NCBI GenBank assembly: GCA_965198225.1
Contig: CBDAOY010000008.1
Coordinates: forward strand, 32,001-96,000
Direction of reading: 5' to 3'
DNA: 64,000 bases
From: Terriglobia bacterium
GTDB lineage: Bacteria; Acidobacteriota; Terriglobia; 20CM-2-55-15
A program made the position numbers and the translations under genes. Shown here one piece after another: positions 1 through 14,281 of the stretch (its first letter is position 1; each line of letters begins with the position of its first letter). Below the pieces are notes generated by a model. That model saw nothing but the letters and a program-made list of their open reading frames with translations. It was not told the origin of the DNA and did no database searches.

Positions 1-231
1 GGTCATGAACTTCTGATCGGCGAATAGATGACCCAGTATCCAGACCCAGCGATGGATCCCGCTCAAATCGCCATAGGCGGTCGGATTGAAATAAGCGGCA
101 TAGATCATCGAGAAGGACTGAATGTTCATGATCAGGATCCCGAGCAGGGCAAAGCCCCTCATGGCATCCAGGGAAGGGATCCTTTTCGATTCCGGTACGG
201 GCCCTCGAGGCCCTTGTCTTCGTGACATCAT
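1..231 (-). CDS. DUF418/YeiB-family membrane protein, N-terminal part (continues off the window start)
   Basis: Manual minus-strand translation from ATG 231/228: MSRRQGPRGPVPESKRIPSLDAMRGFALLGILIMNIQSFSMIYAAYFNPTAYGDLSG...FADQKFMT, typical DUF418 N-terminus; absent from the ORF track because it is open-ended. Confidence 0.8.
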   Translation of the reverse strand, partial: MMSRRQGPRGPVPESKRIPSLDAMRGFALLGILIMNIQSFSMIYAAYFNPTAYGDLSGIHRWVWILGHLFADQKFMT

Positions 232-288
232 CGACAGCCCTCGATTCGGGCGCAACGGTGAGATTGCTGGAGAGCACTGATTCTGACT

Positions 289-840
289 TTACTCACTCAC
301 CCTCTTGATTAATCTGCTGGATGGTTCCTGTGCCGGGTTGGCGACTTTGCGAGAGGCCTCGATCCCGGTCGCAGGGAGTTGCTCCGTGTCGATCAAGCCG
401 ACCTGCGCGAGTACGGAGGCCTGGTCCCAGTAGATGCGCTCACCGGCGATCTTTCCGTCTTTGAACTGCACAACCACGACGACGGCGAATTCGACCCGTT
501 TGCCCGTAGGCGGTACGCCGGGGAGTATCCACGGCATCTCGATCGTGTGGGTAAATTTGTGAATCAATTCATCCACTACGCGGTCATCTCCAACCGTGCG
601 GGCGACCGGTACGGCTTCGGTGTCTGGTGGATGACCGGGGAGGAAATAAGTGTTGTAGAAGTGACGGACTTCGTTGAAGCCGACGCCGCCTGTCATCACA
701 GGGACGTGATTGACGAACGGATCCGACGTCATTGTGGCCATCGTCGCATCGATACTCTTCTCCTCGAACTCGGCCCTCATGTGCCGCTCCCACATCTCGA
801 CCATCGTCTGCTGTTCCGGAGTAAGGTTACGATCATTCAT
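289..840 (-). CDS. SnoaL/NTF2-like ester cyclase family protein
   Basis: WERHMRAEF..DATMATM..PFVNHVPVMTGGVG..ERIYWDQASVL motifs; start moved to ATG 840 behind GAGGG. Confidence 0.8.
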   Translation of the reverse strand: MNDRNLTPEQQTMVEMWERHMRAEFEEKSIDATMATMTSDPFVNHVPVMTGGVGFNEVRHFYNTYFLPGHPPDTEAVPVARTVGDDRVVDELIHKFTHTIEMPWILPGVPPTGKRVEFAVVVVVQFKDGKIAGERIYWDQASVLAQVGLIDTEQLPATGIEASRKVANPAQEPSSRLIKRVSE

Positions 841-960
841 GGTTTCTCGACCCTCCTTCTCTATATGCCGGCGTCCGACTGCGGCCCATGCAAGCCAGCC
901 TCTCGGATCTGTATGATTTCGCCTCCTAGTCCGGGGCATGTTGGACAACCGATCACGTTC

Positions 961-1021
961 GTCAGACGGGTTGGCGTCAAGCCCACCCGGGGGCGGCGGA
1001 CCTCCAAACGGCTTGTTACTG
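961..1021 (-). other. degenerate attC-like site
   Basis: Minus strand just after the stop: CAGTAAC-AAGCC-GTTTGGAG...GCTTGAC-GCCAACCC-GTCTGAC; box spacing is attC-like but R' is mutated. Confidence 0.35.
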
Positions 1022-1609
1022 TCAGTTGGTGGCTTCCAGAGCGTCGAGCACGCGCCGCCCTCGCGGTGAGAGACGGTACCCCGTCTCCAGGCTTTCGGTC
1101 AGACCAAGGTTTTTCAGCTTCCGGACGTTAAGCTTGAGCCTCTCCTTTTCCTGCCCAACACGCGTCGCGAGATCGCCTGCCCGGACTCCGGGTTCGGCAC
1201 CGACCAGTCGAAGTGTGGTGAGGGTCCAGGGACCGTGCCGGCTTGCGCGGTCGAGTCGCTCGAGCCGCCCCTTGATTTCGGCCAAATCGACGGTCGTCAG
1301 CCTATTCTGATTACGCAGGGCTATTCGGGGATCGTCCCCCACATAGCTCACCTCGATTCTGTAAATACTCCCCGCGACCCTGCGGTTCAATTCCGCGCGC
1401 AATTCGCTGGTTGACTCGTAGCCGGCGGCGCGAGCCTCCCGGGTTGTGATCGACGATTGCGGCACCTGTCGAACAGCACCGATTCGGACAACACCAATGG
1501 CGGTCTTCAGCGTGCCCCCGGACCGTACGGATGGCCTTCGCCACCGACGGAAGGCGAGCGTCACTTCGCCCTGCCGGATCCCCCGCAGAAAATGGTTGCG
1601 GAAGAGCAC
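1022..1609 (-). CDS. ASCH/PUA-like domain protein with C-terminal winged HTH
   Basis: GEVTLAFRRWRRPSVRSGGTL motif; C-terminal KLNVRKLKNLGLTESLETGYRLSPRG. Confidence 0.7.
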   Translation of the reverse strand: MLFRNHFLRGIRQGEVTLAFRRWRRPSVRSGGTLKTAIGVVRIGAVRQVPQSSITTREARAAGYESTSELRAELNRRVAGSIYRIEVSYVGDDPRIALRNQNRLTTVDLAEIKGRLERLDRASRHGPWTLTTLRLVGAEPGVRAGDLATRVGQEKERLKLNVRKLKNLGLTESLETGYRLSPRGRRVLDALEATN

Positions 1610-1671
1610 ACTGTCGTTCCTCGGTCAGGTCCGTCCCACGGAATTCGGCAGTTGGCTGCGAGCCGGACGTA

Positions 1672-2049
1672 TCACCCAGGTAGCAGCTCAAGCGTCGGGA
1701 TCATGCGGCGCTCCGCCGTGAACCCACGCACCCACTTTTGTGATGCCTTCGTGTTGTACTTCTCGGCATAGGCCCGGCTGCCGGCTTCCCGCAATCGCTC
1801 GCTTCGCGTGTGCCTCGCACGGACCGCGACCTCTCGCTCAGCGAGATGGACAGTTCCGCGTGGTTCGGCGCGAAAGGCGCGGTACCACCCGGTTGGGTTA
1901 TCACTCCATGACCGAACGAAAACCCTGCGGCCGACAACAACGACCCACACTCCGGTATAGCGATGTTCGCTGCCGGCGCGAATACCAAGAATCTTGGCTT
2001 GCTGGAGCGCCTGGAGCACGGGGCCTGAGAAACGGCGCTCGGTAGTCAT
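1672..2049 (-). CDS. DUF2255-family protein
   Basis: GIRAG..HRYTGVWVVVVGRRVFVRSW..GWYRAF..YAEKY. Confidence 0.65.
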   Translation of the reverse strand: MTTERRFSGPVLQALQQAKILGIRAGSEHRYTGVWVVVVGRRVFVRSWSDNPTGWYRAFRAEPRGTVHLAEREVAVRARHTRSERLREAGSRAYAEKYNTKASQKWVRGFTAERRMIPTLELLPG

Positions 2050-2133
2050 GTCGTTGACATCAGTCAGTTCGTCGGGGTTGGTTTGTGCCGCCTAGTGGCC
2101 CCGGGACCAGGCCGTGCGACCGGCACCGCCAAC

Positions 2134-2203
2134 CGACAACACTCGAGAAATGCTGCGGAGCCGATCGCGTTTACGGAGAGCCAGCTTCATTGTTTTGTTG
2201 GAT
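2134..2203 (-). other. degenerate attC overlapping the 3' end of the ADP-ribosylglycohydrolase gene
   Basis: Minus: ATCCAAC-AAAAC-AATGAAGC-TGG...GCAGC(tt lost)ATT-TCTCGAGT-GTTGTCG. Confidence 0.5.
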
Positions 2204-3181
2204 AGTCCCTTGAGCCCGGAGTGCTGACAACTCTTCGGCGATAGGAATCAGGTTGTGATTGTTGAGATCGTCGACAACATCGTACCACTCGTCGTTAACA
2301 CTGTCGGGATGCCTGGCACCAAGGATCCCCCCGGCAATGGACGCGATGGAATCGGCGTCGCCTCCCACGTTGGTTGCGAGGAGAATGACCGATCCCACAG
2401 ATCGCATCAGGGTTCCGAGTGCCAGCGCCAGTGGCACCTTGGTCAACGGTGTTTCGGGAAAGTATCGCTCCGCGAGTTCATCTGCCCCGACGTTGGTCCT
2501 CTGTTTCAAGTCGTTGCGAATCGAGCGAACTGCCAGAGAAAAGACAGCTCCCCGCGAACTTGGCCAGAGTGTCTCCGCTATGGCGGCCGCCCGCGCGGCG
2601 AATTCGCCGATCTCCTCGCCGGAGGCGCCGTCGATCGCCGCTGACACGGCGGCGGCCGTTGCCGCGGCACCGGCGATTGCCAGCGAGTCGCCGTGGGTGG
2701 GAATGGAGGCCTCTCGGGCGGCGGAGAAAATGCCGTTCAAGTTTCCCGAGGAATAAACTATGCCCACCGGTGCCACGCGGATTGCCGCGCCGCAGCCGTC
2801 ATGCTCGAGATCAACTCGCTCCGGGTCGTTCGCTTCGTGGAACCTCCACAGGGATTGAACTCCCGGGTGCACGCTCTTCCGGCATCCAAGCATTTCCCGT
2901 CCGACGCCCGCGTGTGAGACCGTGCGATCCTTGATAATCGCTCGTGCAACCGCGATCGTCCGCTCGGTATCGTCCGTGGTCTCCCCGATCCGCCACTCAC
3001 GCTTCCGATGGCCGACATAACGCGGGATCACCGAACCTGGAGTTCCCTCGAAGCCGCGAACTCCATCGGGATACCACTCGGTGACCTGTTGCCGGGAAAG
3101 CGTCTCCGTTTGCTTTCCGATGGCATCCCCGGTCGCGACGCCCTTGAGGCAGCCAATGATCCGTTCGTGTGATGTCATCAT
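2171..3181 (-). CDS. ADP-ribosylglycohydrolase family protein
   Basis: G.ATGDAIG, GETTDDT, GAAIRVAPVG, THG and GGDADSIASIAG motifs. Confidence 0.9.
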   Translation of the reverse strand: MMTSHERIIGCLKGVATGDAIGKQTETLSRQQVTEWYPDGVRGFEGTPGSVIPRYVGHRKREWRIGETTDDTERTIAVARAIIKDRTVSHAGVGREMLGCRKSVHPGVQSLWRFHEANDPERVDLEHDGCGAAIRVAPVGIVYSSGNLNGIFSAAREASIPTHGDSLAIAGAAATAAAVSAAIDGASGEEIGEFAARAAAIAETLWPSSRGAVFSLAVRSIRNDLKQRTNVGADELAERYFPETPLTKVPLALALGTLMRSVGSVILLATNVGGDADSIASIAGGILGARHPDSVNDEWYDVVDDLNNHNLIPIAEELSALRAQGTIQQNNEAGSP

Positions 3182-3326
3182 GATTCAGGGCGCGCTCACG
3201 CCCTGCTTCGTCGCCCGCTGACACGTTGGACGAATGCAGTAACGGATAACAAGATAGCCGCCAACAACATCACGATAAGCGTTGCAAACTTCGTTCCGGT
3301 GACCCAGGGCAGCCCTGCACTGGGCC

Positions 3327-3583
3327 TGTAACAGTGCTATCGGCACCATCGCCGATGGGTCTTGCGGGCGAGGTCGAGGAGGGAGACGGAAAGCGATGCT
3401 CTTTCATCGGTGACGGCTTCCGACAAAGAGATCGCCCGCAACCCCCATCGGCCCGAAGGGTTCGGCCCAACGGCGCCGTCTTCGGTGTCGTAACGCCCTC
3501 GCAATGAAACAGCATTGGCTCGAGCGTCACTCCTAGAATCCGACGCCGTTCCGCCGAACGCTGGTACCGATAGCACTGTTACA
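3327..3583. mobile_element. 257-bp MITE-like element with TGT...ACA ends
   Basis: 22-bp terminal inverted repeats TGTAACAGTGCTATCGGCACCA (3327-3348) / TGGTACCGATAGCACTGTTACA (3562-3583), 1 mismatch; no credible ORF. Confidence 0.7.
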
Positions 3584-3598
3584 AGAGGCCCGCTTTGC

Positions 3599-4030
3599 CT
3601 AAACGCTCGTTTGCCGGAGAGCCGGCTTTGTGTGGGACCAATGGCTGTGAATGATCCTCCACTGCCCATCGACACGACGATAGACCTCCGTGGAATTCCA
3701 GCGGGCCAACAGGGATTCTTGCTGATCAGCTAGTTTTCCATAGTTGACGACGTTCGAACTCAACACCGCCACGTCACCGTGGTGCTGAACCCTAGGAGCC
3801 ATCATCTCGTACCGTGGATCCGTGAACGGGAGTTCGAGGTCCTTTATCGGACCCAACAGTGCTCTCATGGCTTCCAATCCATCCCTGCGTTCTTCCTGGT
3901 TTGGATCGAAGTAGGTCACCTCAAGTGCGTACAGGTCCAGGTAGCAGGTAGCCCTGGGGATCACCGGTGACCCAACGGTCGAGCGCGGATCGCTCCGAGG
4001 CTATGATCTCTTCGGATACACTAGCCCATC
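3599..4030 (-). pseudogene. DUF4440/SnoaL-like (NTF2 fold) protein, frameshifted
   Basis: N-part SEEIIASERSALDRWVTGDPQGYL and C-part DLYALEVTYFDP...RWNSTEVYRR..WRIIHSHWS are in different frames, joined by the 7-bp tandem duplication CTACCTG-CTACCTG near 3938-3951. Confidence 0.75.
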
Positions 4031-4149
4031 GAGTCTCCCCCTCTCCTGAACTGCATTGGTACAAGACGCTGCGAAGCCCGGGAAGAGGACAAAGGGATCC
4101 GAAAAATCGCTTCTGGATAGTATGGGTGCGGGCCCGGTACAACGTTCAG

Positions 4150-4593
4150 TCATGAGTCTTGTCGCTCCAGAAAGGTTTTCAGGCTTTCGCGGAGAAAATA
4201 GTCCCACCCCGCCTGGCCGCTTTCGCGGCTGAAATCTGGATTGTCCTGCGGAAAGGTCTCAATTCCCTTGTGAGAAAACTTCAATTTCGTACCGCTGGGC
4301 GTTTCCGACAGTTCCCATGTGACAGACGAGTTTCCGGCGTAACCTCCGTATCGCCAGTTGTAAGCAATTCTCCTTCCCGGAACCACGTCGGTCACTTTCC
4401 ACTGGTGTGGGTAGTCCCGGTCTTCGACCCGTACATTGAACTGCGTTTCGAAACCTACTTCAGGTTCGAAGTCAGTGATCGTCTCGAAGAACCACTGACG
4501 CATTTGATCCTTGTCGGTAATGGCCTTCCAAACCACAGCGATGGGAGCGTTGAATGTGTGTTCCACGACGATCGGGTCTGCATTTATGTCCAT
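4150..4593 (-). CDS. SRPBCC/AHSA1-like domain protein (cassette gene)
   Basis: FNAPIAVVWKAITD..MRQWFF..F.PEVG..GTKLKFSHKG..GWDYFL; directly follows an attC R' box. Confidence 0.9.
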   Translation of the reverse strand: MDINADPIVVEHTFNAPIAVVWKAITDKDQMRQWFFETITDFEPEVGFETQFNVRVEDRDYPHQWKVTDVVPGRRIAYNWRYGGYAGNSSVTWELSETPSGTKLKFSHKGIETFPQDNPDFSRESGQAGWDYFLRESLKTFLERQDS

Positions 4594-4808
4594 GTGGTTC
4601 GTCCTGAAAGAATTGTCAACTGCAATCTAACGTCGTTGCCGTTAAGCTGCGGGCGCGAAACAAGGCGGCGCAAGCGAAGCTTGCGACCGCTAAGACCAGC
4701 TATCCGCCAGCTTCAACGGCTTGATACTCATGAAGGCCCCCAAAGCTGCCCGCCAGGCGGGCAGGCTGGAAAGGTAACCAAACCGATTCCAAGAAGGGGG
4801 CTTTCTGA

Positions 4809-5855
4809 ATGCGATTCTATACCAACCAACATGAGTACTACTGCGGGATCGACCTGCATGCACGGACGATGTGGATTTGCATCCTCGACTCGACCGGAGA
4901 AGTCTTGGTCGACAAGAACGTCAGTGCCGGACCCGAGGAGTTTCTGAGAGTGATCGAACCCTATCGATCCGATGTGGCCGTTGGCGTGGAATGCATTTTC
5001 ACTTGGTATTGGCTGGCGGACCTGTGCGAGCGGGAAGAGATCCGGTTCGTGCTGGGTCACGCCCTGTACATGAAAGCGATTCACGGTGGGAAAGCCAAGA
5101 ACGACCGGATCGATGCCTACAAGATCGCTGTGCTACTGCGCGGCGGCATGTTGCCCCAGGCCTACGTGTATCCGGAACCGATGCGCGCCACGCGGGATCT
5201 GCTCCGTCGCCGGCTGTATCTGGTCCGTATCCGCGGTGAGCTGCTGACTCACATCCAGAACACGAATCACCAGTACAATCTCGGCCCGATTCCATCGAAA
5301 CTCCAATACCCATCCAATCGCGACGGATTCGTCGAACGATTCACCGATCCGAGCGTCCGGAAGAGCATGGACGCGGATCTGGAACTGATCGGTCACCTGG
5401 AACGCGTGATCCATGCGATTGAGGTCTATGTCCTCAAGCAAGCCCGCCAGCACGATCCCGGAGCCGTTCATCTGTTGCGGTCCATCCCGGGTATCGGCAA
5501 GATCCTGGCGCTGACGATTCTCTATGAGATTCAGAACATCGACCGATTCGAACGCGTTCAGGATTTCGTCTCCTACTCCCGGCTAGTGAAGTGTGCCAAG
5601 GAGTCGGCCGGCAAGAGAATCAGCTCCAGTTCCGGCAAGAAGATCGGTAACGTCCATTTGAAGTGGGCGTTCTCTGAAGCTGCCGTTCTGTTCCTGCGGC
5701 AGAATCCCGATGGCCAGAAATTCTTGGCTCGGCTCAGCCGCAAGCACGGCAAACCGAAAGCATTGAGCATTCTCGCTCACAAGATCGGCCGCATCACCTA
5801 TCACCTGATGCGGAGGAGGACGAACTTCGACATGCGAAAGTTTCTTGCGGCTTGA
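4809..5855 (+). CDS. IS110-family transposase (DEDD RuvC-like plus Tnp20 domain)
   Basis: YCGIDLH, VGVEC, KNDRIDA, LRSIPGIG, KESAGK, GNVHLKWAFSEAA; intact 348 aa. Confidence 0.95.
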   Translation: MRFYTNQHEYYCGIDLHARTMWICILDSTGEVLVDKNVSAGPEEFLRVIEPYRSDVAVGVECIFTWYWLADLCEREEIRFVLGHALYMKAIHGGKAKNDRIDAYKIAVLLRGGMLPQAYVYPEPMRATRDLLRRRLYLVRIRGELLTHIQNTNHQYNLGPIPSKLQYPSNRDGFVERFTDPSVRKSMDADLELIGHLERVIHAIEVYVLKQARQHDPGAVHLLRSIPGIGKILALTILYEIQNIDRFERVQDFVSYSRLVKCAKESAGKRISSSSGKKIGNVHLKWAFSEAAVLFLRQNPDGQKFLARLSRKHGKPKALSILAHKIGRITYHLMRRRTNFDMRKFLAA

Positions 5856-6240
5856 CGGAAGGGAGCGGGAGAACCCTTTGCCTAACTGGCGTCGCTACGG
5901 TCTCATCCTCCATCGAGAATCATCATGCGTGCGGCACCGACCGCGATCACCGATTCTCATGGACCTTAGACCAGACAGCCATCTCGCTTGATTGGTTCCC
6001 GCTCCCGTTCCGACCCGACTGGTGCTCTGCCCCTCACCCGAGCCTGGAGCTAACTGGCGGCACACGCCGACACTTGAGTAGGACGGTACGAGGGTACTGA
6101 TGAATTTCTAGGTCGCGGTTCGATCCTGAACCGCAGTGCTGAGTCTTGACAGCGCTTGAACCTCAATAGGTGTTTGGTGCAGCGCATCTCGGCTGCACCG
6201 GCAATCGAATCCAAGTCGGAGCACGTCTCTCAACTTCGAA
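5856..6240 (+). ncRNA. putative bridge/seek RNA of the IS110 element
   Basis: Stem GGGAGCGGGAGAACC (5861-5875) / GGTTCCCGCTCCC (5994-6006) encloses target matches; a second loop carries donor-junction matches; boundaries approximate. Confidence 0.7.
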
Positions 6241-6316
6241 TTGGCTCACTGTCGTGAGCCATGAGGATTGGTGTCGCTCTTGACTCTACGGGGCCTTATA
6301 GGTGTTAGACAGCTCA

Positions 6317-6688
6317 TTAAGTGACGTGCGGCAGCGGTTCCAACTCTTCTAGGGCCGCCTTGGCTGATCGCATGGCATGCCAGAGATCCCAGTCTTGCTG
6401 TAATCCGAGCCAAAAGTCGGCACTCATCCCTGTGACGCGAGCCAACCGCAGCGCTGTGTCCGGGGTGACTGATCTCTTGCCTCGAATGATCTCATTCAGA
6501 CGGGGAAACGATACGCCCAGACGAATGGCAAAGGCCGACTGCGACACACCGAGCGGCTTTAGAAACTCCTCAAGGAGCATTTCGCCCGGATGCGTCGGAG
6601 GTTCATGGGTGGGCAGCGGGCGTGCCACCAGCGGCTTTTTCTTTGATCGGCGTTTAATGGTAGTCGGTGACTTCGACTTTGTCGGCAT
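6317..6688 (-). CDS. higA: HigA-family antitoxin (HTH)
   Basis: PTHPGEMLLEEFLKPLG.SQ...RLNEIIRGKRSVTPDTALRL...FWLGLQ. Confidence 0.92.
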   Translation of the reverse strand: MPTKSKSPTTIKRRSKKKPLVARPLPTHEPPTHPGEMLLEEFLKPLGVSQSAFAIRLGVSFPRLNEIIRGKRSVTPDTALRLARVTGMSADFWLGLQQDWDLWHAMRSAKAALEELEPLPHVT

Positions 6689-6947
6689 AGCCGTTCTCCC
6701 AAGAAAAACACACCCGGTACTGTTCATTGATCCGAATGCTATATTGGCCTGCTCTGTCGCCCACCAGTCGTTCCAAACGGTTGCCCGGCGGCACCGCCAA
6801 CTCGTGAAGATCTCGTACGCGGTTGAGTTGGGTCAGCTTTCGACGGGCTACGGGCCACAGCTCAATCAGACAGGTTCGCCGAGCTCGCCGGCTTTTGACA
6901 CCGTTGAAGATGTCCGTGGTGGCCTGATCGGCGAACGTCCGTATCAC
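6654..6947 (-). CDS. higB: HigB-family (RelE-like) toxin
   Basis: MIRTFAD..T.DIFNG..VPPGNRLERL.GDRAGQYSIRINEQYRVCF.W..VEVTDYH. Confidence 0.92.
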   Translation of the reverse strand: MIRTFADQATTDIFNGVKSRRARRTCLIELWPVARRKLTQLNRVRDLHELAVPPGNRLERLVGDRAGQYSIRINEQYRVCFSWENGYADKVEVTDYH

Positions 6948-6952
6948 GGACT

Positions 6953-6976
6953 CTATTATAACGGACTACGTAATAG
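6953..6976. promoter_or_regulatory. imperfect palindrome upstream of higB, candidate HigA operator overlapping a -10 box
   Basis: CTATTA...TAATAG inverted repeat; the minus strand contains TATAAT; directly upstream of the higB start. Confidence 0.5.
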
Positions 6977-6998
6977 TGTCCAGGGGCCGTCGTTGGCT

Positions 6999-7051
6999 GT
7001 CTAACGGTTTGTGGCTCTGTGGCCGCCGTCTGGTGCAGCCACTTGTTATAA
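6999..7051 (-). other. attC site, internally shortened
   Basis: Minus: TTATAAC-AAGTG-GCTGCACC...GAGC-CACAAACC-GTTAGAC; its R' extension GTTAGACAGC is the exact complement of GCTGTCTAAC at the end of the same cassette (6304-6313). Confidence 0.8.
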
Positions 7052-7063
7052 CCGCTGTTCAGG

Positions 7064-7369
7064 TTAGCTGGCCTGCACGCACTTGATACGTCCGAGTTCT
7101 GCCGCCTCCGCTGCCTGCGCGTGATAGAGATCCCAACGGAGTTGGAGGTTCATCCACAAATCGGCGGTAGTCCCAAAGAACTTCGCCAGTCGAAGGGCCG
7201 TGCTTGGGGTGATCCCACGTCGACCGTTCACCAGTTCATTAATGCGTTGATACGGAACACGGATGCCATCAGCCAACTGGCGCTGGCTGAGGCCCATCGG
7301 ATTCAGGAATTCTTCTAAGAGCATCTCGCCAGGGTGAGTAGGCTGACGATGCGTTGGGATTCGGACCAT
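7064..7369 (-). CDS. higA: second HigA-family antitoxin
   Basis: PTHPGEMLLEEFLNPMGLSQ..YQRINELVNGRRGITPSTALRLAKFFG..WMNLQ. Confidence 0.92.
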   Translation of the reverse strand: MVRIPTHRQPTHPGEMLLEEFLNPMGLSQRQLADGIRVPYQRINELVNGRRGITPSTALRLAKFFGTTADLWMNLQLRWDLYHAQAAEAAELGRIKCVQAS

Positions 7370-7399
7370 TGAAGCCTCCGATTCAGTTGCGACCCTTGC

Positions 7400-7693
7400 T
7401 CAGTGGTAGTCGACAATCTCCACATTCTCCGGACCAAGCTCCGTCCACACGAAGCAGACGCGATACTGATCGTTCACGCGCATGCTGGGCTGCCCAGCCC
7501 GATCCTTCTTCAGGGCTTCCAGTTGGTTGCCAGGCGGTGCCCGCAGGTCTCGTAGCGTGCTGGCCGAATCGAGCAGCTCCAGCTTACGCCTCGCGGCCTT
7601 CCGAACGGTTGCCGGGCAGACCTGACGGGCCCGCTTAGTTTCCGATCCATTGAAAATATCTTCCGTGCCACCGTCGCGAAACGAATGAATCAC
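7400..7693 (-). CDS. higB: second HigB-family toxin
   Basis: MIHSFRD..TEDIFNG..LRAPPGNQLEALKKDRAGQ.SMRVNDQYRVCF.W..VEIVDYH. Confidence 0.9.
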   Translation of the reverse strand: MIHSFRDGGTEDIFNGSETKRARQVCPATVRKAARRKLELLDSASTLRDLRAPPGNQLEALKKDRAGQPSMRVNDQYRVCFVWTELGPENVEIVDYH

Positions 7694-7878
7694 ATTACCA
7701 CGATAGCACGGATGCCATGCTACTCGAAGGGCGTGTTACCGTTGTTCGATGTTCGTCGGTATAACGAATAGGGTTTTATCCGCGGTGCGGGCACGCGAAG
7801 TTTCGAAAAACGGCGAACGGACACACGGATCCAACAGCGGGACGGAGAGGATCTCTGGTTTGAAACCGGCAAACGGAA

Positions 7879-8292
7879 TCATGACGAATCCCAGGTTTGT
7901 GGCGGGAGGATTCGGACAGAAACGAGCGTTCCGATGCCGCAGGACGGGCACGGGCGGGGTTCGGCAATCCACTGGAGGAGCGGTTCTGGACGCGGTTTGC
8001 GTGGTGCCTGTGCTCGAGGCAGAAGCTGGCGGCAGCGGGCGAGGTTGCGAGCTTTGTGGCGGTTGGCCATGAAGCCGAAGTGGCGGATGCGCATCAGACC
8101 ACGTGGGAGCACGTGCAGGAGAAAGCGTCGGATGAACTCGTCGGCGTCCAGGGTCATCGTTTTGAGTCAATCGCCACTTTTGCGGTCGCGATAGAGGAAC
8201 GAGACTCCATCGGGTTCGACGGTTCGGATGCGGTGGTTGGAGATCGCGACTCTGTGGGTGTAGCGAGCCAGGTAGTCCAGGACCGTGTCGCT
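7879..8292 (-). pseudogene. IS91-family (Y2 HUH) transposase, C-terminal remnant
   Basis: YLARYTHRVAISNHRI..VSF.YRD, in-frame TGA at 8167-8169, then MTLDADEFIRRFLLHVLP.G.MRIRHFGFMANR and CPSC; 5' part missing. Confidence 0.88.
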
Positions 8293-8425
8293 TCGTAGTG
8301 ACCCAAAACACGCAATTCCGCCACTAGCGATACTTCGGAAAACATCCCGGCACAAGCGGGGGGCTACGTCATCACCCCCAGACTCCCGATGCTTCGGGAC
8401 GGGTTGGTCAGTGAGGAAGCCGCCG

Positions 8426-10111
8426 CTACCCGCTCGAGCGGTTGAGGGCGGGTAGGCTCAGAAGGGTTCCAACCGCCACCACCGCTACGGCTCCGACCAC
8501 ATTGTAGTAGAGGAAGGAAATGTCCGTCGTCTCGCTGACGGCGAACACTGACAGCATTCCCGCCAGCAGTCCAAGGAAGGCGCCGTTCCCGTCGGCCCTC
8601 TTTACCAGGAAGGCCAGAAGGAACACGCCCAAAAGGGACCCGTAAAAGTAAGATCCGACCAGATTGACGGCCTCGATCAGCGAGCCTAACTGACCGGCAA
8701 AGAGCGCAAATCCACTGGCAAGCATCCCCCAGAACAGGGTCGCTATCCGGGAAGCCTTCAGATAGTGTTCAGGAGGAGCCTCCCGTTTGAAGTAACGCCG
8801 ATAAAAATCCACGATCGTGGCACTGGAGAGGGCGGTCAGCTCGGAGTCGAGTGAAGACATGGCGGCCGCGAAGATGACCGCGATCATCAGACCCAGCACG
8901 CCAGCCGGCACGTACTTTATCAGGTAAGAAGGAAAGACGTAATTGACGTCGTTGGAGGATGCCCCACGCACCTCCTCGACCAGCTGCTTGGACTCGCTGC
9001 GCAGATCCGAAAGCTGCTGGTCGTACCCACTGATCTGTTGCCGCAAACCGAGCAGATCTTCCCCGTTGCGACGCGCCGCGAGCAGACTGAGGGTGGCTTC
9101 CTTTCTGAGATCGTGAGTGGCTTCATGTTCCGTATCCAGACGGGCGAACTCCTGGGCACGGGAACTGTCTTCAACCGCGGCCGTCTCGGCTGGATTGAAG
9201 ATCAAAGGAGGCCGTTCAAAGTGATAGAAGACAAACAGCAGGACGCCGATGGCCAGGATGGCGAACTGCATGGGGACCTTCACGAAGGCATTGAAGATCA
9301 GAGCGAGCCGACTCTGCTTCAGAGAGCTTGCTGTGAGATAACGCTGGACCTGGCTCTGATCGCAACCAAAATAAGCCAGCGCGAGAAAGAACCCTCCGAT
9401 CAAACCGGACCACAGCGTGTAGGTGTTGGTCGGATCCCAGGACAGATCGATACTCGACCACATCTGCTGGATTCCTCCGATGTAGACCACGTCCCCCATG
9501 GCCACCTCCGAGGGCAGAGCCCCGAACAGCACCACCAGAGCGACCGCGATCCCTGCAAACATCATCAGCATCTGCAGAACATCGGTCCAGATGACAGCCG
9601 TGATTCCACCCATCACCGTGTAAAGAATGGTCACCGCCCCCATGATCACGATGGTGACGGTCTCGTCCCAACCCATGATCACCGACAGCACCACCGCAGG
9701 GGCGTACAGCACAATTCCGGCCGCCATGCCGCGAGATAACAAGAACAGGAAACTGGTCAGGGACCGCGTCTTGGCATCAAAGCGATTCTCCAGGTATTCA
9801 TAGGCGGTATACACCCTGGCCCGGTAGAAGAAGGGAACAAACAACACACAGAGCAGCACCATCACCAGGGGCTGCGGCAGGTAGACCTGGATGAATTCCA
9901 TTCCACTCTCATAGGCCTGCCCGGTGGTGCCGATGAAGGTGATGGCGCTGGCCTGGGTGGCCATCACGGAAAGACCGATCGCCCCCCAGGGAAGGCGCCG
10001 ATTGGCCAGAAAGAAGCCCTCAACGCCGACGTTTTTCCGGCTCTGAGAGTAGGCAAAGGCCAGCACAGCGCCGAAGTAGATAGCAAAAACGAACCAGTCC
10101 AGGGTACTCAT
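8426..10111 (-). CDS. sodium:solute symporter (SSS) family transporter
   Basis: GLSVMATQASAITFIGTTGQ, YEYLENRFD, YFGCDQSQVQRYL, AAAMSSLDSEL; many TM segments; start set to ATG 10111. Confidence 0.93.
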   Translation of the reverse strand: MSTLDWFVFAIYFGAVLAFAYSQSRKNVGVEGFFLANRRLPWGAIGLSVMATQASAITFIGTTGQAYESGMEFIQVYLPQPLVMVLLCVLFVPFFYRARVYTAYEYLENRFDAKTRSLTSFLFLLSRGMAAGIVLYAPAVVLSVIMGWDETVTIVIMGAVTILYTVMGGITAVIWTDVLQMLMMFAGIAVALVVLFGALPSEVAMGDVVYIGGIQQMWSSIDLSWDPTNTYTLWSGLIGGFFLALAYFGCDQSQVQRYLTASSLKQSRLALIFNAFVKVPMQFAILAIGVLLFVFYHFERPPLIFNPAETAAVEDSSRAQEFARLDTEHEATHDLRKEATLSLLAARRNGEDLLGLRQQISGYDQQLSDLRSESKQLVEEVRGASSNDVNYVFPSYLIKYVPAGVLGLMIAVIFAAAMSSLDSELTALSSATIVDFYRRYFKREAPPEHYLKASRIATLFWGMLASGFALFAGQLGSLIEAVNLVGSYFYGSLLGVFLLAFLVKRADGNGAFLGLLAGMLSVFAVSETTDISFLYYNVVGAVAVVAVGTLLSLPALNRSSG

Positions 10112-10345
10112 GGGGCGCTGTAGTCCAGAAACACCGTAAAGAGATAAAGGAGTCCTATCAGGAGACTGGTGTAGATGACGATGGACCCGTAGAGCCAATT
10201 CCAGCTGGGGAAAAAGCTGATTCGTTCCTCTTCGTCTTCCAGAGTATCGGTCTGGCCGTGCTGATCGTCATTCACGATGGGTGTCCACCGAGCAAGTCAA
10301 TAACAGCGCAAATACCAGTCGTTTCATAGACATGAAGTCTATCAT

Positions 10346-10722
10346 GTGTAGGTGCGGTCTATGACCGCACATTCCGCGGATCGATAAGACTGTGCGGTCA
10401 TAGACAGTCACAGACACACATACACCCACCGTGCAACATCTCTCGCCCCCGGTGTAGGGGCGCTCTATCAAGCTGTGAACGAATACCATTTGTTTGAGAA
10501 TCGGGTGGCGGGGCTTTTCATGAAGAACCTGCGATTCTCAAGTGTAGGTGCGCTCTATGAGCGCACAAATGCCCGCGGGACCACAAGTTGTGCGGTCATA
10601 GACCGCACCTACACGTGAAAAGCCCCGCCACCCGATTTTCCGTTCCCATAATTCGTTCACAGCTTCTATGAGCGCACAGCGTTTCGGCTCGAAGAATGTG
10701 CGGTCACAGACCGCACCTACAC
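10346..10722. repeat. cluster of GTAG-type REP palindromes with a nested MITE
   Basis: Several copies of GTAGGTGCG(C/G)TCTATGA(G/C)CGCAC in inverted pairs; IR AAGCTGTGAACGAAT (10470-10484) / ATTCGTTCACAGCTT (10651-10665) splits one REP. Confidence 0.85.
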
Positions 10723-11132
10723 CCGTTTGCGGAGTTTGCCAATGCCGGTTATCAAAGCGTAGACCAGCAACGGTTCCCAGGTGAGGCCCCCGATGATGTG
10801 GCCCCAGAAGTGGACATGGACAGGGGCGCCGAGGTTGTAGGGCCATACCTGGAAGATAGTTTCGTTGCCCGACCACCAGGTGTAGCCGAGGCCGACGGAT
10901 TCGACGAGCATGTAGGGAGCGATCAGGGCGTAGGAGACGATGAGGCGCGCGCGGCGCGTGGTTTCTTTCGATGAGAAGAAGACGATAGCAATCAGGACGA
11001 CGGCCGTCATGGAGGCGTAACGCGCCCAATCGGCGAGGTCCGCCCAATCGGCGAGGTGACCGTGAGCGCGAACCGGATCGTGCCGACGGCCAGGATCAGA
11101 GGGATGAAGAGTTTTAGAGGGCTGTAGGGCAT
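10717..11132 (-). pseudogene. small membrane protein, apparently frameshifted
   Basis: Hydrophobic N-part (MPYSPLKLFIPLILAVGTIRFALTV) and C-part (RYASMTAVVLIAIVFF...HFWGHIIGG) in different frames around a 17-bp direct repeat at 11023-11057. Confidence 0.5.
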
Positions 11133-11156
11133 CGGGAAATGGGGTAGAGTACCGGC

Positions 11157-11501
11157 ATGTCGGATTGCCTGTTCTGCAAGATCATCGCCGGGGACATTCC
11201 TGCGAAGAAAGTATACGAAGACCAGGACGTGTTGGCGTTCGAAGATATCAGCCCGAAGGCCCCGACACACGTGCTCGTGATTCCCAAGAAACACATCCCG
11301 ACTTTGAACGACCTGGAGGAAGAGGACAACCCGGTTATGGGTAAGATCTTCCAGGTCGCGAAGCAGATCGCGCGGGAGCAGGGAATCGACCAATCCGGTT
11401 ACCGTACCGTTTTCAACGTGAACGAGTCAGCGGGACAGGCCGTCTTTCACATCCACCTGCACGTATTGGGTGGTCGGGCGTTGACGTGGCCGCCGGGCTA
11501 G
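11157..11501 (+). CDS. hinT: histidine triad (HIT) nucleotide-binding protein
   Basis: DCLFCKI, PKAPTHVLVIPK, GQAVFHIHLHVLGGR. Confidence 0.95.
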   Translation: MSDCLFCKIIAGDIPAKKVYEDQDVLAFEDISPKAPTHVLVIPKKHIPTLNDLEEEDNPVMGKIFQVAKQIAREQGIDQSGYRTVFNVNESAGQAVFHIHLHVLGGRALTWPPG

Positions 11502-11613
11502 GAGTCTGCGCGGCAGAACGATTTTGGGTCATTGCGACCACAACATAGTGTCTGTGCGCAGCACTTAGCATCGACATGGAGTACCGAGTTTCTTCTGCCG
11601 CGCAGACTCCTAG
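11499..11613. mobile_element. short MITE / paired IS ends with CTAG termini
   Basis: CTAGGAGTCTGCGCGGCAGAA ... TTCTGCCGCGCAGACTCCTAG perfect IR; a solo end recurs at about 23700-23732. Confidence 0.75.
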
Positions 11614-11749
11614 CAGGACAATCCTGCCGAGGGGGTCGTTCCCGGACGCAGCCCCTTATTGGCTAAATCGCTAGTACACATAAGGATAAGGCCCAGCGAA
11701 CCAGCAGATAACCCTAAAGCCCGGATCGCATCCGGTCGATGCGAACCTT

Positions 11750-12124
11750 ATGGGCACCGATACCCTTGCGGCTATGGACGAGAAGAGACGTTCCGCTCGA
11801 ATCGTGCCGATCGGCCCGAACGAGGATGTCGTCGTGTTGCACGTGGCAGGAGAGCAGCACTTGGCGAAGATTCTCGACCTGAGCGACGGTGGGACTTGCG
11901 TCTACACGGTAGAGCCGGGCTTCCCGCTCGACGTCGGCGAGACCTGCGGCATGTCTCTGTACCACAACAGGAGCGTCCTGGATCTGGACGTCCGGGTCTG
12001 CCGAAAGAACGGACAGGTCGTCGGCCTGGAATTCCATACCCTGTCGGCCGAGGCTAGGGAGCACCTGAGTGCCAAGATCATCCGGCTCGAAGTCGAGTGG
12101 ATGCGTGTAAAGCCCAACGTCTAA
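11750..12124 (+). CDS. PilZ domain protein
   Basis: EKRRSAR (RxxxR) and DLSDGG (DxSxxG) motifs, VGLEF. Confidence 0.85.
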   Translation: MGTDTLAAMDEKRRSARIVPIGPNEDVVVLHVAGEQHLAKILDLSDGGTCVYTVEPGFPLDVGETCGMSLYHNRSVLDLDVRVCRKNGQVVGLEFHTLSAEAREHLSAKIIRLEVEWMRVKPNV

Positions 12125-13251
12125 TATGCCTCCATGAAAAGTTTCTCGAAATCGTCTTCCGTCACCGGCTGCCGGGGATTAGTCGCGTGCGACGGGTCAT
12201 CAAACGCCTTTGCGGCCAGTTGCCCCACGTCGTTGCTGTCCACTCCGTGATTGCGTAGTCCCAGCGTCATCCCGACGTCTTTCAGCAAAGCCCCGACTTC
12301 TGCAACACCATCCACACCACCGAGCGCTTTCCCTACTTCACCATAAAGGCCCGAGTTCTCCGACGCGTTGAAGCGCATCGTGAAAGGCAGGACCAGCCCG
12401 TTGGCCAACCCGTGAGCCGTCCCATAGACGGCCGACAGGGAGTGGGCCATCGAGTGGTTCATCCCCAGGAACTTCTGGTTGTAAACCAGAGCGCCGGTCA
12501 TCGCCGCCAGCATCACGTCGGACCGTGCGTTCAGATTGTCGGGTTTCTCGACGACCGCTCGAAGGCCGTCGCGGAGCAACTCGAGTCCAAACAGCGCCAT
12601 GCGGTCGATCATCGGGTTCAGGACGGTGGATACATATCCTTCCACCAGGTGTGTCAGGGCGTCCACGCCGGTGTTGACCGTGACGGCTGCCGGCAGCTCG
12701 AGAGTCAGTTTGGGATCGACCAACGCGAGATTCGGGATCAGGTACGGACTGCCCAGTGCGAGCTTCATCTTCTGATCGGTGTCGGTAATGACGGAGAAGG
12801 ACGACACCTCCGACCCTGTACCGGCGGTGGTCGGTATAGCAATGAGCGGTGGCAGCCGATCGCCGATCTTGGCCATCCCGCCCTTCCCGCTGTCGTATTG
12901 CGCCATCGGCGGCGGATGCGTTTTCATCAGGCCGATCGCCTTCGCGGTGTCCATCGCGCTGCCGCCGCCAAGCGCCACAATGCCGTCGGCCCCGCAGTCA
13001 TCGCAGACACCCAACCCCGTTTCGACGCCGTTGTCGGTGGGGTTCGCGACGACATCACTGAACACCCGGACGCGGAGCCCGGCCGCGCTGATGTTCGACT
13101 CCAACGACTCCGCGATACCGCAGGCGACCAGTCCCGGATCGGTGACGAGCAGGACCGAACTCATCCCCATCTTCCGGGCTTCCTTCCCGGCCCTTTGCGA
13201 AGCGTCCGGCCCGAAGATCACCCGGTTGGGCAATGTAAAATACGTCAGCAT
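12121..13251 (-). CDS. iron-containing alcohol dehydrogenase
   Basis: GGGSAMDTAK, IPTTAGTGSE, DALTHLVE, HSMAH, HGLAN. Confidence 0.93.
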   Translation of the reverse strand: MLTYFTLPNRVIFGPDASQRAGKEARKMGMSSVLLVTDPGLVACGIAESLESNISAAGLRVRVFSDVVANPTDNGVETGLGVCDDCGADGIVALGGGSAMDTAKAIGLMKTHPPPMAQYDSGKGGMAKIGDRLPPLIAIPTTAGTGSEVSSFSVITDTDQKMKLALGSPYLIPNLALVDPKLTLELPAAVTVNTGVDALTHLVEGYVSTVLNPMIDRMALFGLELLRDGLRAVVEKPDNLNARSDVMLAAMTGALVYNQKFLGMNHSMAHSLSAVYGTAHGLANGLVLPFTMRFNASENSGLYGEVGKALGGVDGVAEVGALLKDVGMTLGLRNHGVDSNDVGQLAAKAFDDPSHATNPRQPVTEDDFEKLFMEAY

Positions 13252-13302
13252 CGTTTGACGATTGTATTGGCGGCCGGGGTGAACATCCAGCAGGGACTTT
13301 TT

Positions 13303-13380
13303 AACCACGGAGGCGCGGAGGCACGGAGGTTTTTGAAATAAAGATCCGGGAGTCTCCGCGCCTCCGTGTCTCCGTGGTTA
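13303..13380. repeat. intergenic imperfect palindrome built from 9-bp units (AACCACGGAGGCGCGGAGGCACGGAG ... CTCCGTGGTT)
   Basis: Arms are complementary; a related copy lies at 53579-53673. Confidence 0.75.
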
Positions 13381-13390
13381 ATTCTTCTTC

Positions 13391-14281
13391 TTATTCTTTT
13401 GGCTTTCGGGCTGTAACGTAGAAGTGGTTGGCCAGGACGTGGGCGTCGGGGAGGCGATTGAGCCAGCGGTCCAGGTAGCGGAACGGTGCCGCGATCCAGC
13501 CGAAGCCGCCCATGATCCCTCGATTGACCCAGCGGCGTACGGGATTGGCGCAGTGGACCGGGAACAGCAGCTTCCCGTAGTAGGTCATGAAGGTCAGCAT
13601 CGTAGTCGTCGGTCCGGTACGGATTCCGACCTGGACTTCGGCGAAGTCTCCGAACAGGGAGGCCAGACCCTCGCGCGAGAACCGGGAAAAGTCGGAAGGG
13701 TAGGCGTGGTAGGGATGGCAGAACGGCACAACGGCTTCGACCAGTCCTTCCGGCTTGAGGACGCGGTAGGTTTCCCGGACGACTCCTCCGGGGTCCGCGA
13801 CGTGTTCGAGCAAGGCCAGGCAGGCAACTCGGTCGCACGAGCCTTCAGCAAACGGAAGCCGGCCGGCATTGGCGACGAGGTCCACTCCATAGAAAGGGGA
13901 CAGGTCAATGTTGACGAACCCTCCGGTGTCCAATCCGCCTCCACCCAGCCAGAGATTCATGCCGTGGTCGGCCTCCGGCAGCGGTGGTGCGCCGCTATCG
14001 ACGTAGACCGGCTCTGGAGGGGCCAGAGTTCGAAAGAGACGCGAGCCGAACTCGCGGCCGTGTCGTCGGACGTACTGGTCTTCCATCCGCGCCGTCGAGC
14101 CGCCGTCCAGGGCGCCGCCGAAGAGCTGCCGATCCTCCGGGGTCATCATGATCGGTACGCCGTCGGCGGTTACCTTGTAATCGATGCTGCACGCTGCGCA
14201 TTCCAGTTGCGTATCGTGCAGGTTGAGCGGCCCATGGCATCGAACGCAGCGCAGCTGTTCCTGCCAGTCCGAATCTCTCAT
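13391..14281 (-). CDS. class I SAM-dependent methyltransferase with N-terminal Trm112-like Zn ribbon
   Basis: LRCVRCH..LECAAC..GVPIM; LWLGGG, LPFAEGSCD, LEHVADP, RVLKPEG; start overlaps the upstream stop. Confidence 0.85.
   Translation of the reverse strand: MRDSDWQEQLRCVRCHGPLNLHDTQLECAACSIDYKVTADGVPIMMTPEDRQLFGGALDGGSTARMEDQYVRRHGREFGSRLFRTLAPPEPVYVDSGAPPLPEADHGMNLWLGGGGLDTGGFVNIDLSPFYGVDLVANAGRLPFAEGSCDRVACLALLEHVADPGGVVRETYRVLKPEGLVEAVVPFCHPYHAYPSDFSRFSREGLASLFGDFAEVQVGIRTGPTTTMLTFMTYYGKLLFPVHCANPVRRWVNRGIMGGFGWIAAPFRYLDRWLNRLPDAHVLANHFYVTARKPKE

Follow-up and report, generated by a model that had tools for sequence, protein, structure and literature searches.

Remnant of an IS91-family element at the edge of a cassette array

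We examined a 64,000-nt stretch of Terriglobia bacterium DNA (contig CBDAOY010000008.1 of assembly GCA_965198225.1; C8:32001-96000, hereafter the window) in which the remnant of an IS91-family insertion sequence (IS) lies directly against an array of small genes resembling integron cassettes. Coordinates without a contig are those of the window. The remnant was observed on the minus strand at 8355..7879 as a Y2 transposase gene in two adjoining reading frames (Pfam Y2_Tnp, PF04986). The upstream frame (8167..8355, minus) matched profile positions 103-141 (E 7e-10), with the tyrosine pair of the YxxxY motif visible in its translation (LDYLARYTHR), and the C-terminal piece in the other frame (7879..8157, minus) matched positions 147-181 of 183 (E 8e-11). 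Homology began at about 8292, while 8293-8355 had no match. Because the profile coverage (103-181) is split over two frames, the window gene is 5'-truncated, with its first two-thirds gone, and frameshifted, the frameshift falling near 8160. The N-terminal Zn-binding domain and the HUH region are absent, as profile coverage runs only from position 103 onward, and with the frameshift this marks the window copy as a remnant of an IS91-family member, not a functional member. The C-terminus reads ...WDSS before a stop codon at 7881-7879, and relatives likewise end in ...DSS before the stop. Between the C-terminal piece and residues 302-391 of an intact transposase (397 aa) from genome G042, identity was 53%. 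A sodium:solute symporter gene (Pfam) ended about 70 bp upstream of the remnant. No further copies of the remnant were found in its own genome, where the nearest match was about 70% identity to a domain of a different IS91 subgroup, and 150 related genomes yielded nothing close to its 3' end at the DNA level.

Between the stop codon and the array lies a shortened and decayed non-coding 3' end of 113 nt (7766..7878, minus), which ends in ...GGATAAAACCCTATTC / CGGATAAAACCCTATTC against GTTATAC. From the end of the transposase open reading frame (ORF) to the terminus, the corresponding region measures about 320 nt in G042 and about 356 nt in G145. The last 16-18 nt of the tail (7783-7766, GCGGATAAAACCCTATTC) match the conserved 3' arm and 8-nt spacer of a terminal hairpin, a terminal motif common to G042, G050, G058, G066, G145 and 28 members from other phyla, while the R''-like box and 5' hairpin arm of these relatives are missing or degenerate in the window.

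An earlier note on this stretch, written without database searches, had described an IS91-like Y2 remnant ending at 7879 and followed by about 110 bp and then GTTATAC, and the locus is as described. Its observation that the terminus is near-complementary to the R'' closing the first higBA cassette also holds, bar a one-base indel, as does its statement that no intI precedes the junction within the window. It had added that no attC hairpin precedes the GTT. The present sequence is indeed unfoldable, but the GTT is preceded by 18 nt that survive from the 3' arm and spacer of what we describe below as the attC-like hairpin of the element.

The adjoining cassette array

The GTTATAC at the junction (7759..7765, minus) is an R'-type core and the entry boundary of cassette 1. 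It is near-complementary to CGGTTATAAC (7054..7045), which opens the palindrome after higA-1 and of which GTTATACCG is the reverse complement, one-base indel excepted. Cassette 1 (7064..7693, minus) carries higB-1 (7693-7400; Pfam HigB-like_toxin, E 1.5e-16) and higA-1 (7369-7064; HTH_3, E 4e-12). It is followed by an attC-like site (6999..7054, minus), an imperfect palindrome of 53-56 nt with R'' (CGG)TTATAAC, a short L-type stem GTGGCT/AGCCAC and R' GTTAGAC. Cassette 2 begins at (G)TTAGAC (7005-6999), and its cargo (6317..6947, minus) comprises higB-2 (6947-6654; HigB-like_toxin, E 2.5e-14) and higA-2 (about 6688-6317; HTH_3, E 2e-10). Its R'', GTCTAAC (6304..6310, minus), sits six bases past the higA-2 stop and corresponds exactly, in reverse complement, to the GTTAGAC at the start of the cassette. 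The first six bases of a cassette derive from the R' core in the recombination site of that same cassette, and they therefore pair with the R'' at its end. Such pairing was perfect in cassette 2 and broken by the one-base indel in cassette 1. Only two copies of the GTTAGAC/GTCTAAC 7-mer were observed in the 64-kb window, an unremarkable number given 3.2 expected by chance, and the weight of the pair is in its placement at predicted cassette boundaries, not in its copy number.

The second attC site is split by an IS110-family element (4630..6308, plus strand; Pfam DEDD_Tnp_IS110 and Transposase_20) made up of a transposase gene (4809-5855) and then a 450-nt non-coding region. The element adjoins the R'' of this site (GTCTAA/C, the slash marking the boundary here and below), with its right end at about 6303-6308 and its left end not defined. 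Its 3' part (5826-6308) was 99.6% identical to a 483-bp lone copy at C6:276853-277335. Within the non-coding region CTCAATAGGTGTTTGG (6162-6177) resembles the junction CTTATAGGTGTTAGAC (6295-6310) and could be a guide segment. Beyond the element an R'-type core, GTTAGAT (4623..4629, minus), lies 29 nt ahead of an AHSA1/SRPBCC-family small ORF (4150..4593, minus; Pfam AHSA1, E 1.7e-22), the probable cargo of a third cassette. The intergenic sequences of the small ORFs past this point gave no convincing cassette boundaries, and their status as cassettes is uncertain. In all, the window array consists of one complete attC-like site (7054-6999), one IS-split site (6310-6304 ... 4629-4623) and the boundary complementarities. 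Past a SnoaL_3 ORF we also observed a 25-nt inverted repeat (3327-3351 and 3559-3583), 92% complementary, with its copies 207 nt apart and bounded on the minus strand by TTGTAAC and GTTACAG; it could be an attC-like site of unusual length, or have nothing to do with attC. An Rfam scan of window positions 1-14000 returned two sub-threshold microRNA-model matches only. Arm-alignment and constrained-folding attC scans did not detect the attC-like site of the window itself, and no count given here rests on either.

Terminal hairpin of the relatives

In G042 and G145 the 3' region of about 320-356 nt closes with a long hairpin and then GGATAAAAYYCTRTWC, which forms the element end in G042, G050, G066 and G145 (two copies). 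Searching 400 class-level genomes for the GGATAAAAYYCTRTWC pattern gave 11 matches in 9 genomes, compared with 7 for a reversed control. Eight of the 11 were kept on the basis of a hairpin and/or transposase context, and the matches in G326, G394 and G217 were rejected as chance-like. A second scan, of species-representative genomes, combined the box upstream of the hairpin with the start of the 3' arm and yielded 109 stretches; the counts that follow refer to 80 of the 109, holding 81 matches. By our own arithmetic about 30 chance matches to this pattern are expected. Among the 81 matches listed, a stem was found in 28 (members) and in none of the remaining 53 (non-members). Records of the 28 members span at least eight phylum-level groups and represent 27 distinct junctions.

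Among these listed matches, GTT directly followed the terminus in 24 of the 27 member junctions and in 5 of the 53 non-members, and the strict GTTRRRY in 10 of 27 and 1 of 53, respectively. A hairpin consensus from 23 aligned ends contained 15 pairs, 8 of them with compensatory double changes, a pattern which indicates that the terminal hairpin is conserved as a structure rather than as a sequence.

Several solitary or extra hairpins were also observed. L064 (G058:C7:139218-139300) is a solo terminal hairpin, a full palindrome between GTACAAC and GTTAGGC, and it adjoins a frameshifted IntI-like gene at that gene's truncated 3' end (...DIRTVQELLGHRDVSTT). At L082 (6297-6382, minus) the 3' arm and spacer are tandemly duplicated, with a GTT after each copy. 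L142 has a second solo hairpin and box, then GTTAGGG, about 1300-1420 nt downstream of the element and past non-IS sequence. The extra hairpins of L082 and L142 could be remnants, or a site in use by other cassettes.

Recombinase and transposase of intact elements

The best protein-level relatives of the remnant (G145, G042 and others) carry a tyrosine recombinase gene directly upstream of the Y2 transposase gene. Intact members of the subgroup to which the remnant belongs (subgroup A) are about 2.5-2.65 kb long and start with (G)TTGAACTAAACCGC. The G042 transposase contains Zn_Tnp_IS91 and Y2_Tnp domains and scored 431 bits with the NCBIfam IS91 equivalog NF033538, well over the cut-off of 125. 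For the G042 recombinase the best NCBIfam match was the integron integrase model, with 188 bits in two stretches, under the cut-off of 265.

The window genome itself holds about ten copies of a different IS91-family element of 2503 bp, in which a gene for a 313-aa tyrosine recombinase precedes that of the Y2 transposase. At least eight near-identical copies were located (C4:28266, C6:347720, C6:619051, C7:945357, C9:764851, C9:776564, C9:791527 and C9:815636; loci L002-L010), with ends CGACTTGAACG...GCTAACGAC. In most of them the left and right flanks are mutual inverted repeats, ..ATCCACATGGGAGCATAGG standing before the element and TATACGGGCATGTGGATT.. after it. The recombinase of this genome's own element covers positions 4-176 and 238-315 of the integron-integrase model, with the middle absent. 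Such split coverage agrees with a class defined in bioRxiv 10.1101/542381, parts of which place IS91 recombinases in an 'Integron-like' subgroup without the IntI helical insertion.

Left ends and joined ends

The left ends found in seven elements of subgroup A (L062, L061, L073, L076, L108, L136 and second copies) read GTTGAACTAAACCGC. The box ahead of the subgroup A 3' hairpin, (A)GTTCAAC, is the exact complement of the left end (G)TTGAAC. Complementary boxes and left ends were observed in five subgroups, and the differences between subgroups are compensatory: AGTTCAAC with GTTGAACT in subgroup A, TTCAAGTC with GACTTGAA in the window genome's own 2503-bp element, AGTCCAA with TTGGACT in subgroup C (G067/G103, five copies), TTCAAACGG with CCGTTTGAA in G090, and TTCAAACG with CGTTTGAA in G015. 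For G015 the 3'-end box was known first and the complementary left end found after, while in G090 box and left end were read together.

If the two ends of an element of the window's subgroup are joined, the sequence from R'' to R' comprises the GTTCAAC box, a 4-5-nt spacer, a stem of about 16 bp with its loop, an 8-nt spacer and G+TTGAAC. GTTCAAC fits RYYYAAC and G+TTGAAC fits GTTRRRY. Because the complementarity of box and left end has been kept through compensatory changes, we read the joined ends as an attC-like site. Canonical attC sites are characterised by extrahelical bases, which set the choice of strand; none are evident in this stem. Their absence would fit a recombinase that lacks the insertion of IntI.

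Integron integrase and synteny in the window genome

No intI was found in the window, and all matches of the contig to the integron-integrase model fell at C8:1043228-1044010. The only intI of the genome above the cut-off lies on a different contig (C6:488798-489706, 446 bits) and has an internal TGA. A DDE transposase gene (489897-490958) occupies the attI/cassette position beside it, and no array was found there. Same-genus genomes were collinear with the window only from about 10300 on, and no IntI was found in them. Palindromic repeats of 26-34 nt (GTGTAGGTGCGGTCTATGACCGCACA and its inverse), similar to repetitive extragenic palindromes or miniature inverted-repeat transposable elements, were observed in a cluster at window positions 10340-10722; their unit has dozens of copies in the same-genus genome G001 and marks the start of synteny with G002 and G003.

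Position of the elements in cassette arrays

The terminus is flanked by GTTA in the window, and by GTT and then any base in 24 of 27 relatives; the further bases track cassette cores. Among the relatives, only the G042 element had a complete integron around it; it lies 6 kb from an intI passing the cut-off, among toxin-antitoxin and other small genes that form an array. After each of these genes comes a member of one attC family (ACCTAAC ... GTTAGGT), which has more than ten copies in the locus and, in that genus, dozens per genome. At the left junction a whole host attC, ...gacgcgctggtc, is followed at once by GTTGAAC, and at the right junction ...CTGTAC is followed by GTTAGGTGG. In the sister genome G058 a 90%-identical left-hand cassette was observed with the same attC, ...gacgcgctggtc, running straight into GTTAGGT, an empty site. 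The two genomes form a filled and empty pair, in which the insertion is at the core and nothing is duplicated but the shared GTT.

This pair bears on the first of two readings in the earlier note, that the terminus supplies an attI-like GTT site. The 3' terminus of the element would then be an attI-like primary site that received the higBA cassettes, through the action of the element's own recombinase or of IntI in trans, and the element would have seeded the array. Such a role would suit a recognisable array that begins exactly at the terminus, a terminus that gives the G of G/TT, the IntI-like recombinase, and the same-orientation ORF that begins 20-55 nt past the junction at many loci of the relatives. 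However, same-family cassettes lie on both sides of the G042 element, and G058 has the same core without the element. In the window the GTT and the next four bases act as the R' core of the downstream cassette, pairing with its own R''. The window has no intI, the remnant has lost its own recombinase, and the genome's only intI lies elsewhere, with an internal TGA and an IS in place of cassettes. The place of the remnant 'at the head of the array' may itself be a product of an upstream deletion. We regard an attI-like role as highly improbable.

Junctions of other elements were compared with the sequence downstream. In 17 of 31 cases the same strand carried the reverse complement of the junction 7-mer no more than 3 kb downstream, compared with 59 of 558 for 7-mers of other loci, a control that is inflated because arrays share core sequences. 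The 31 junctions are the 28 scan matches plus G042, G050 and the window; two of them, L130 and L137, are near-duplicates, and the window scored as a miss because of its one-base indel. The partner mostly lay at +380 to +1060, at the end of the first ORF, and was followed by a GC-rich hairpin and another GTT core. In three contigs labelled as one metagenome bin the next attC was again trailed by the left end of a further copy. Such elements lie in cassette orientation, both in integron arrays and in integrase-less attC clusters.

IntI above the cut-off was observed in 21 of 150 relatives, a number that includes all six genomes with verified termini and 15 of the other 144. Among further host genomes four of five had IntI, and one was without IntI at E<=1e-40. 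Boundaries that are exactly cassette-like, in hosts mostly with IntI, would also be expected of a passive cassette, in which recombinase and transposase are simply cargo ahead of a special attC and host IntI alone moves the element. Several observations speak against this. The left end, box and stem base are conserved over hosts of at least eight phyla while host attC families differ, the end sites co-vary with the element subgroup, and several copies occur per genome. In addition, one of the five further hosts has no IntI at the threshold above, and the stem without canonical extrahelical bases matches a recombinase lacking the insertion of IntI. A purely passive role is, in our judgement, quite unlikely.

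We consider it likely that the element inserts at G/TT of attC R' cores, occupying a cassette slot, and that the window copy is the fossil 3' third of such an element. The second reading of the earlier note, that the element targets cassette cores, is in line with this, since 24 of 27 distinct junctions are at GTT and 17 of 31 are cassette boundaries. The note had also proposed looking in intact relatives for a tyrosine recombinase gene upstream, which is present and is part of the element, and for ends at GTTRRRY followed by cassettes. The latter was found for GTT and for the downstream partner, but the strict motif followed in 10 of 27 junctions only. The earlier interpretation was thus half right, in that the element appears to target cores and not to donate an attI.

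A number of observations weigh against this reading. In the window, the copy is assigned by protein homology and its 16-18 terminal bases only, and 7880-7755 folded no better than shuffles (z +0.77), indicating no stable hairpin now. GTTATAC departs from the strict GTTRRRY, and its R'' partner fits only with a one-base indel. The attC-like site of cassette 1 is a weak hairpin (-9.9 kcal/mol, z -1.86) and has no repeat elsewhere in the genome. Similarly, the half-palindrome flanks of the 2503-bp subgroup form no repeat family elsewhere in the genome. Among the relatives, 3 of the 27 junctions are without GTT (GCCAGGC, ATTATCG and GATAAGC), and 14 of the 31 junction 7-mers have no downstream partner. 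Of the two G145 copies, one is a remnant beside a 1218-aa kinase-like gene and the other, which is intact, has GATAAGC as its flank. A repeated attC family at the left flank was found in one of six elements tested by BLAST against their own loci, that of G042 only. The fold energy of rebuilt empty sites did not discriminate them from other GTT positions (ranks 42/56, 27/66, 16/110 and 14/110, in GC-rich loci). The consensus stem is continuous, with no evident extrahelical bases and with asymmetry in the spacers only (4-5 versus 8 nt). The host genomes are kin, which makes their IntI content an association and not a statistical test. In subgroup C (G067/G103) the flanks read x/TTGGAC... and ...C/TT, then unrelated sequence, with no visible attC. 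Finally, a GTT beside the oriIS end would also be predicted by the classical target preference of IS91, whose oriIS end abuts a GTTC/CTTG-type tetranucleotide.

The last two points would suit an ordinary IS91-type insertion, in which Y2 alone puts the oriIS end by GTTN, a core is hit for its GTT, and there is no tie to integrons, the recombinase being otherwise employed. The tetranucleotide target beside oriIS is established, some subgroup A copies lie outside arrays, and the pairing of box and left end could be a guide-type recognition of the cleavage site, as in IS608. The ori-IS/ter-IS rolling-circle model on which such an insertion draws is cited in part of PMC7923331. Yet the bases past the GTT match the R'' of the next cassette well above the control (17 of 31 versus 59 of 558), and strict GTTRRRY was found in 10 of 27 junctions where 1 in 16 is expected given GTT. 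The G042 insertion falls exactly on an attC core whose homologue in G058 is empty, insertions recur at successive attC sites, and IntI is present in all six verified hosts versus 15 of 144 other relatives. We therefore judge an ordinary insertion unlikely.

Proposed history and mechanism

Under insertion at attC cores, one such element would formerly have stood in the cassette slot immediately before higBA-1, its last G against TTATAC, and GTTATAC would then be an ordinary cassette boundary. Decay would have removed about 200 nt of the 3' region, including the box and 5' arm, and frameshifted the transposase gene. A deletion would have taken the 5' two-thirds of the element with its recombinase gene, the preceding recombination site and any attC, attI or intI upstream, and the same deletion would have joined the remnant to the 3' flank of the sodium:solute symporter gene.

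The junctions fit two chemistries, either single-strand recombination of the IntI type at G/TT or HUH cleavage 5' of GTT at both ends. The most likely course would be that the Y2 enzyme releases a single-stranded circle and that this circle, through its folded joined ends, is integrated at GTT cores, with the element's own recombinase or host IntI as the presumed integrating enzyme. We favour this division of labour because the bases past GTT follow the cores, the joined ends imitate attC and the recombinase is the closest kin of IntI. In IS91, displacement starts at the oriIS end. With this polarity the released strand would be the bottom strand of the attC-like site, the strand used by integron integrases. 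A more specific form of the proposal, which we offer tentatively and as a possibility, is that these elements are self-mobilising 'cassettes', their own IntI-like recombinase integrating a Y2-made circle, through an attC mimic without extrahelical bases, at any G/TT core. The insertion that this recombinase lacks is the part of IntI used for such bases.

Relation to known systems

IS91-family members with an upstream tyrosine recombinase are known from ISfinder (ISShvi3, ISAzo26 and ISSde12). The relatives studied here share with them Y2_Tnp, a Zn-binding N-terminal domain and a recombinase ORF directly upstream, while the window copy differs in being only a remnant. The sole single-case note of a comparable arrangement that we found is in part of PMC9229058, where ISShvi3 adjoins an attC in a Shewanella integron. 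Full-text literature searches, with ISfinder and TnPedia text outside their scope, gave no description of attC-like joined ends, box and left-end covariation, GTT junctions or filled and empty attC sites. The probable core-targeting habit of one IS91 subgroup is widespread and apparently undescribed.

Like an integron cassette, the element is bounded at G/TT, has an R''-type box, gains an R' on circularisation, has a paired L-type stem with a variable loop, carries a site of about 85-100 nt and lies in the same orientation as its neighbours. It differs from cassettes in its cargo of transposase and recombinase and in a site sequence that is conserved across distant hosts. Its candidate recombination site differs from canonical attC sites in a stem without evident extrahelical bases and in unequal spacers of 4-5 and 8 nt.

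Specialised invaders of integron arrays are already known in IS1111-attC insertion sequences and group IIC-attC introns. These are likewise mobile elements specialised for attC, and the window has an IS110-family element in its second attC. They work by an RNA-guided DEDD transposase, or by a ribozyme and reverse transcriptase, and they interrupt attC, whereas the IS91-type element at the crossover point leaves attC whole. Targeting of one end of attC sites is described for IS1111-type elements in part of PMC11187229, and the position of the IS110-family element of the window is comparable. The ISCR elements resemble the present ones in having an IS91-family Y2 transposase and a physical link to integrons. 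ISCR1 is found next to the 3' conserved segment, not within the cassette array, and it mobilises neighbouring non-cassette genes by read-through; to our knowledge, descriptions of ISCR include neither a recombinase gene nor an attC-like end. In the IS200/IS605 family, exemplified by IS608, the enzyme is also of the HUH type, a subterminal hairpin is likewise present, and a short stretch on the 5' side of the hairpin foot pairs with the cleavage or target site. IS608 differs in its Y1 enzyme of another family, in having no recombinase and in targets that are not attC cores.

An IS91-family element with cassette-imitating ends and an IntI-like recombinase would be a third kind of array invader, with another logic. 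For annotation, it accounts for IS91-type remnants at cassette boundaries and supplies a terminal motif for recognising them. If the recombinase acts on folded single strands at GTT, there would be a testable link from HUH single-stranded circles to integron recombination. If this is true, such elements may provide a route for cassette movement in integrase-less arrays and a portable cassette-recombination system. They would also be a candidate origin of IntI and attC sites, and a living intermediate between HUH elements and integrons.

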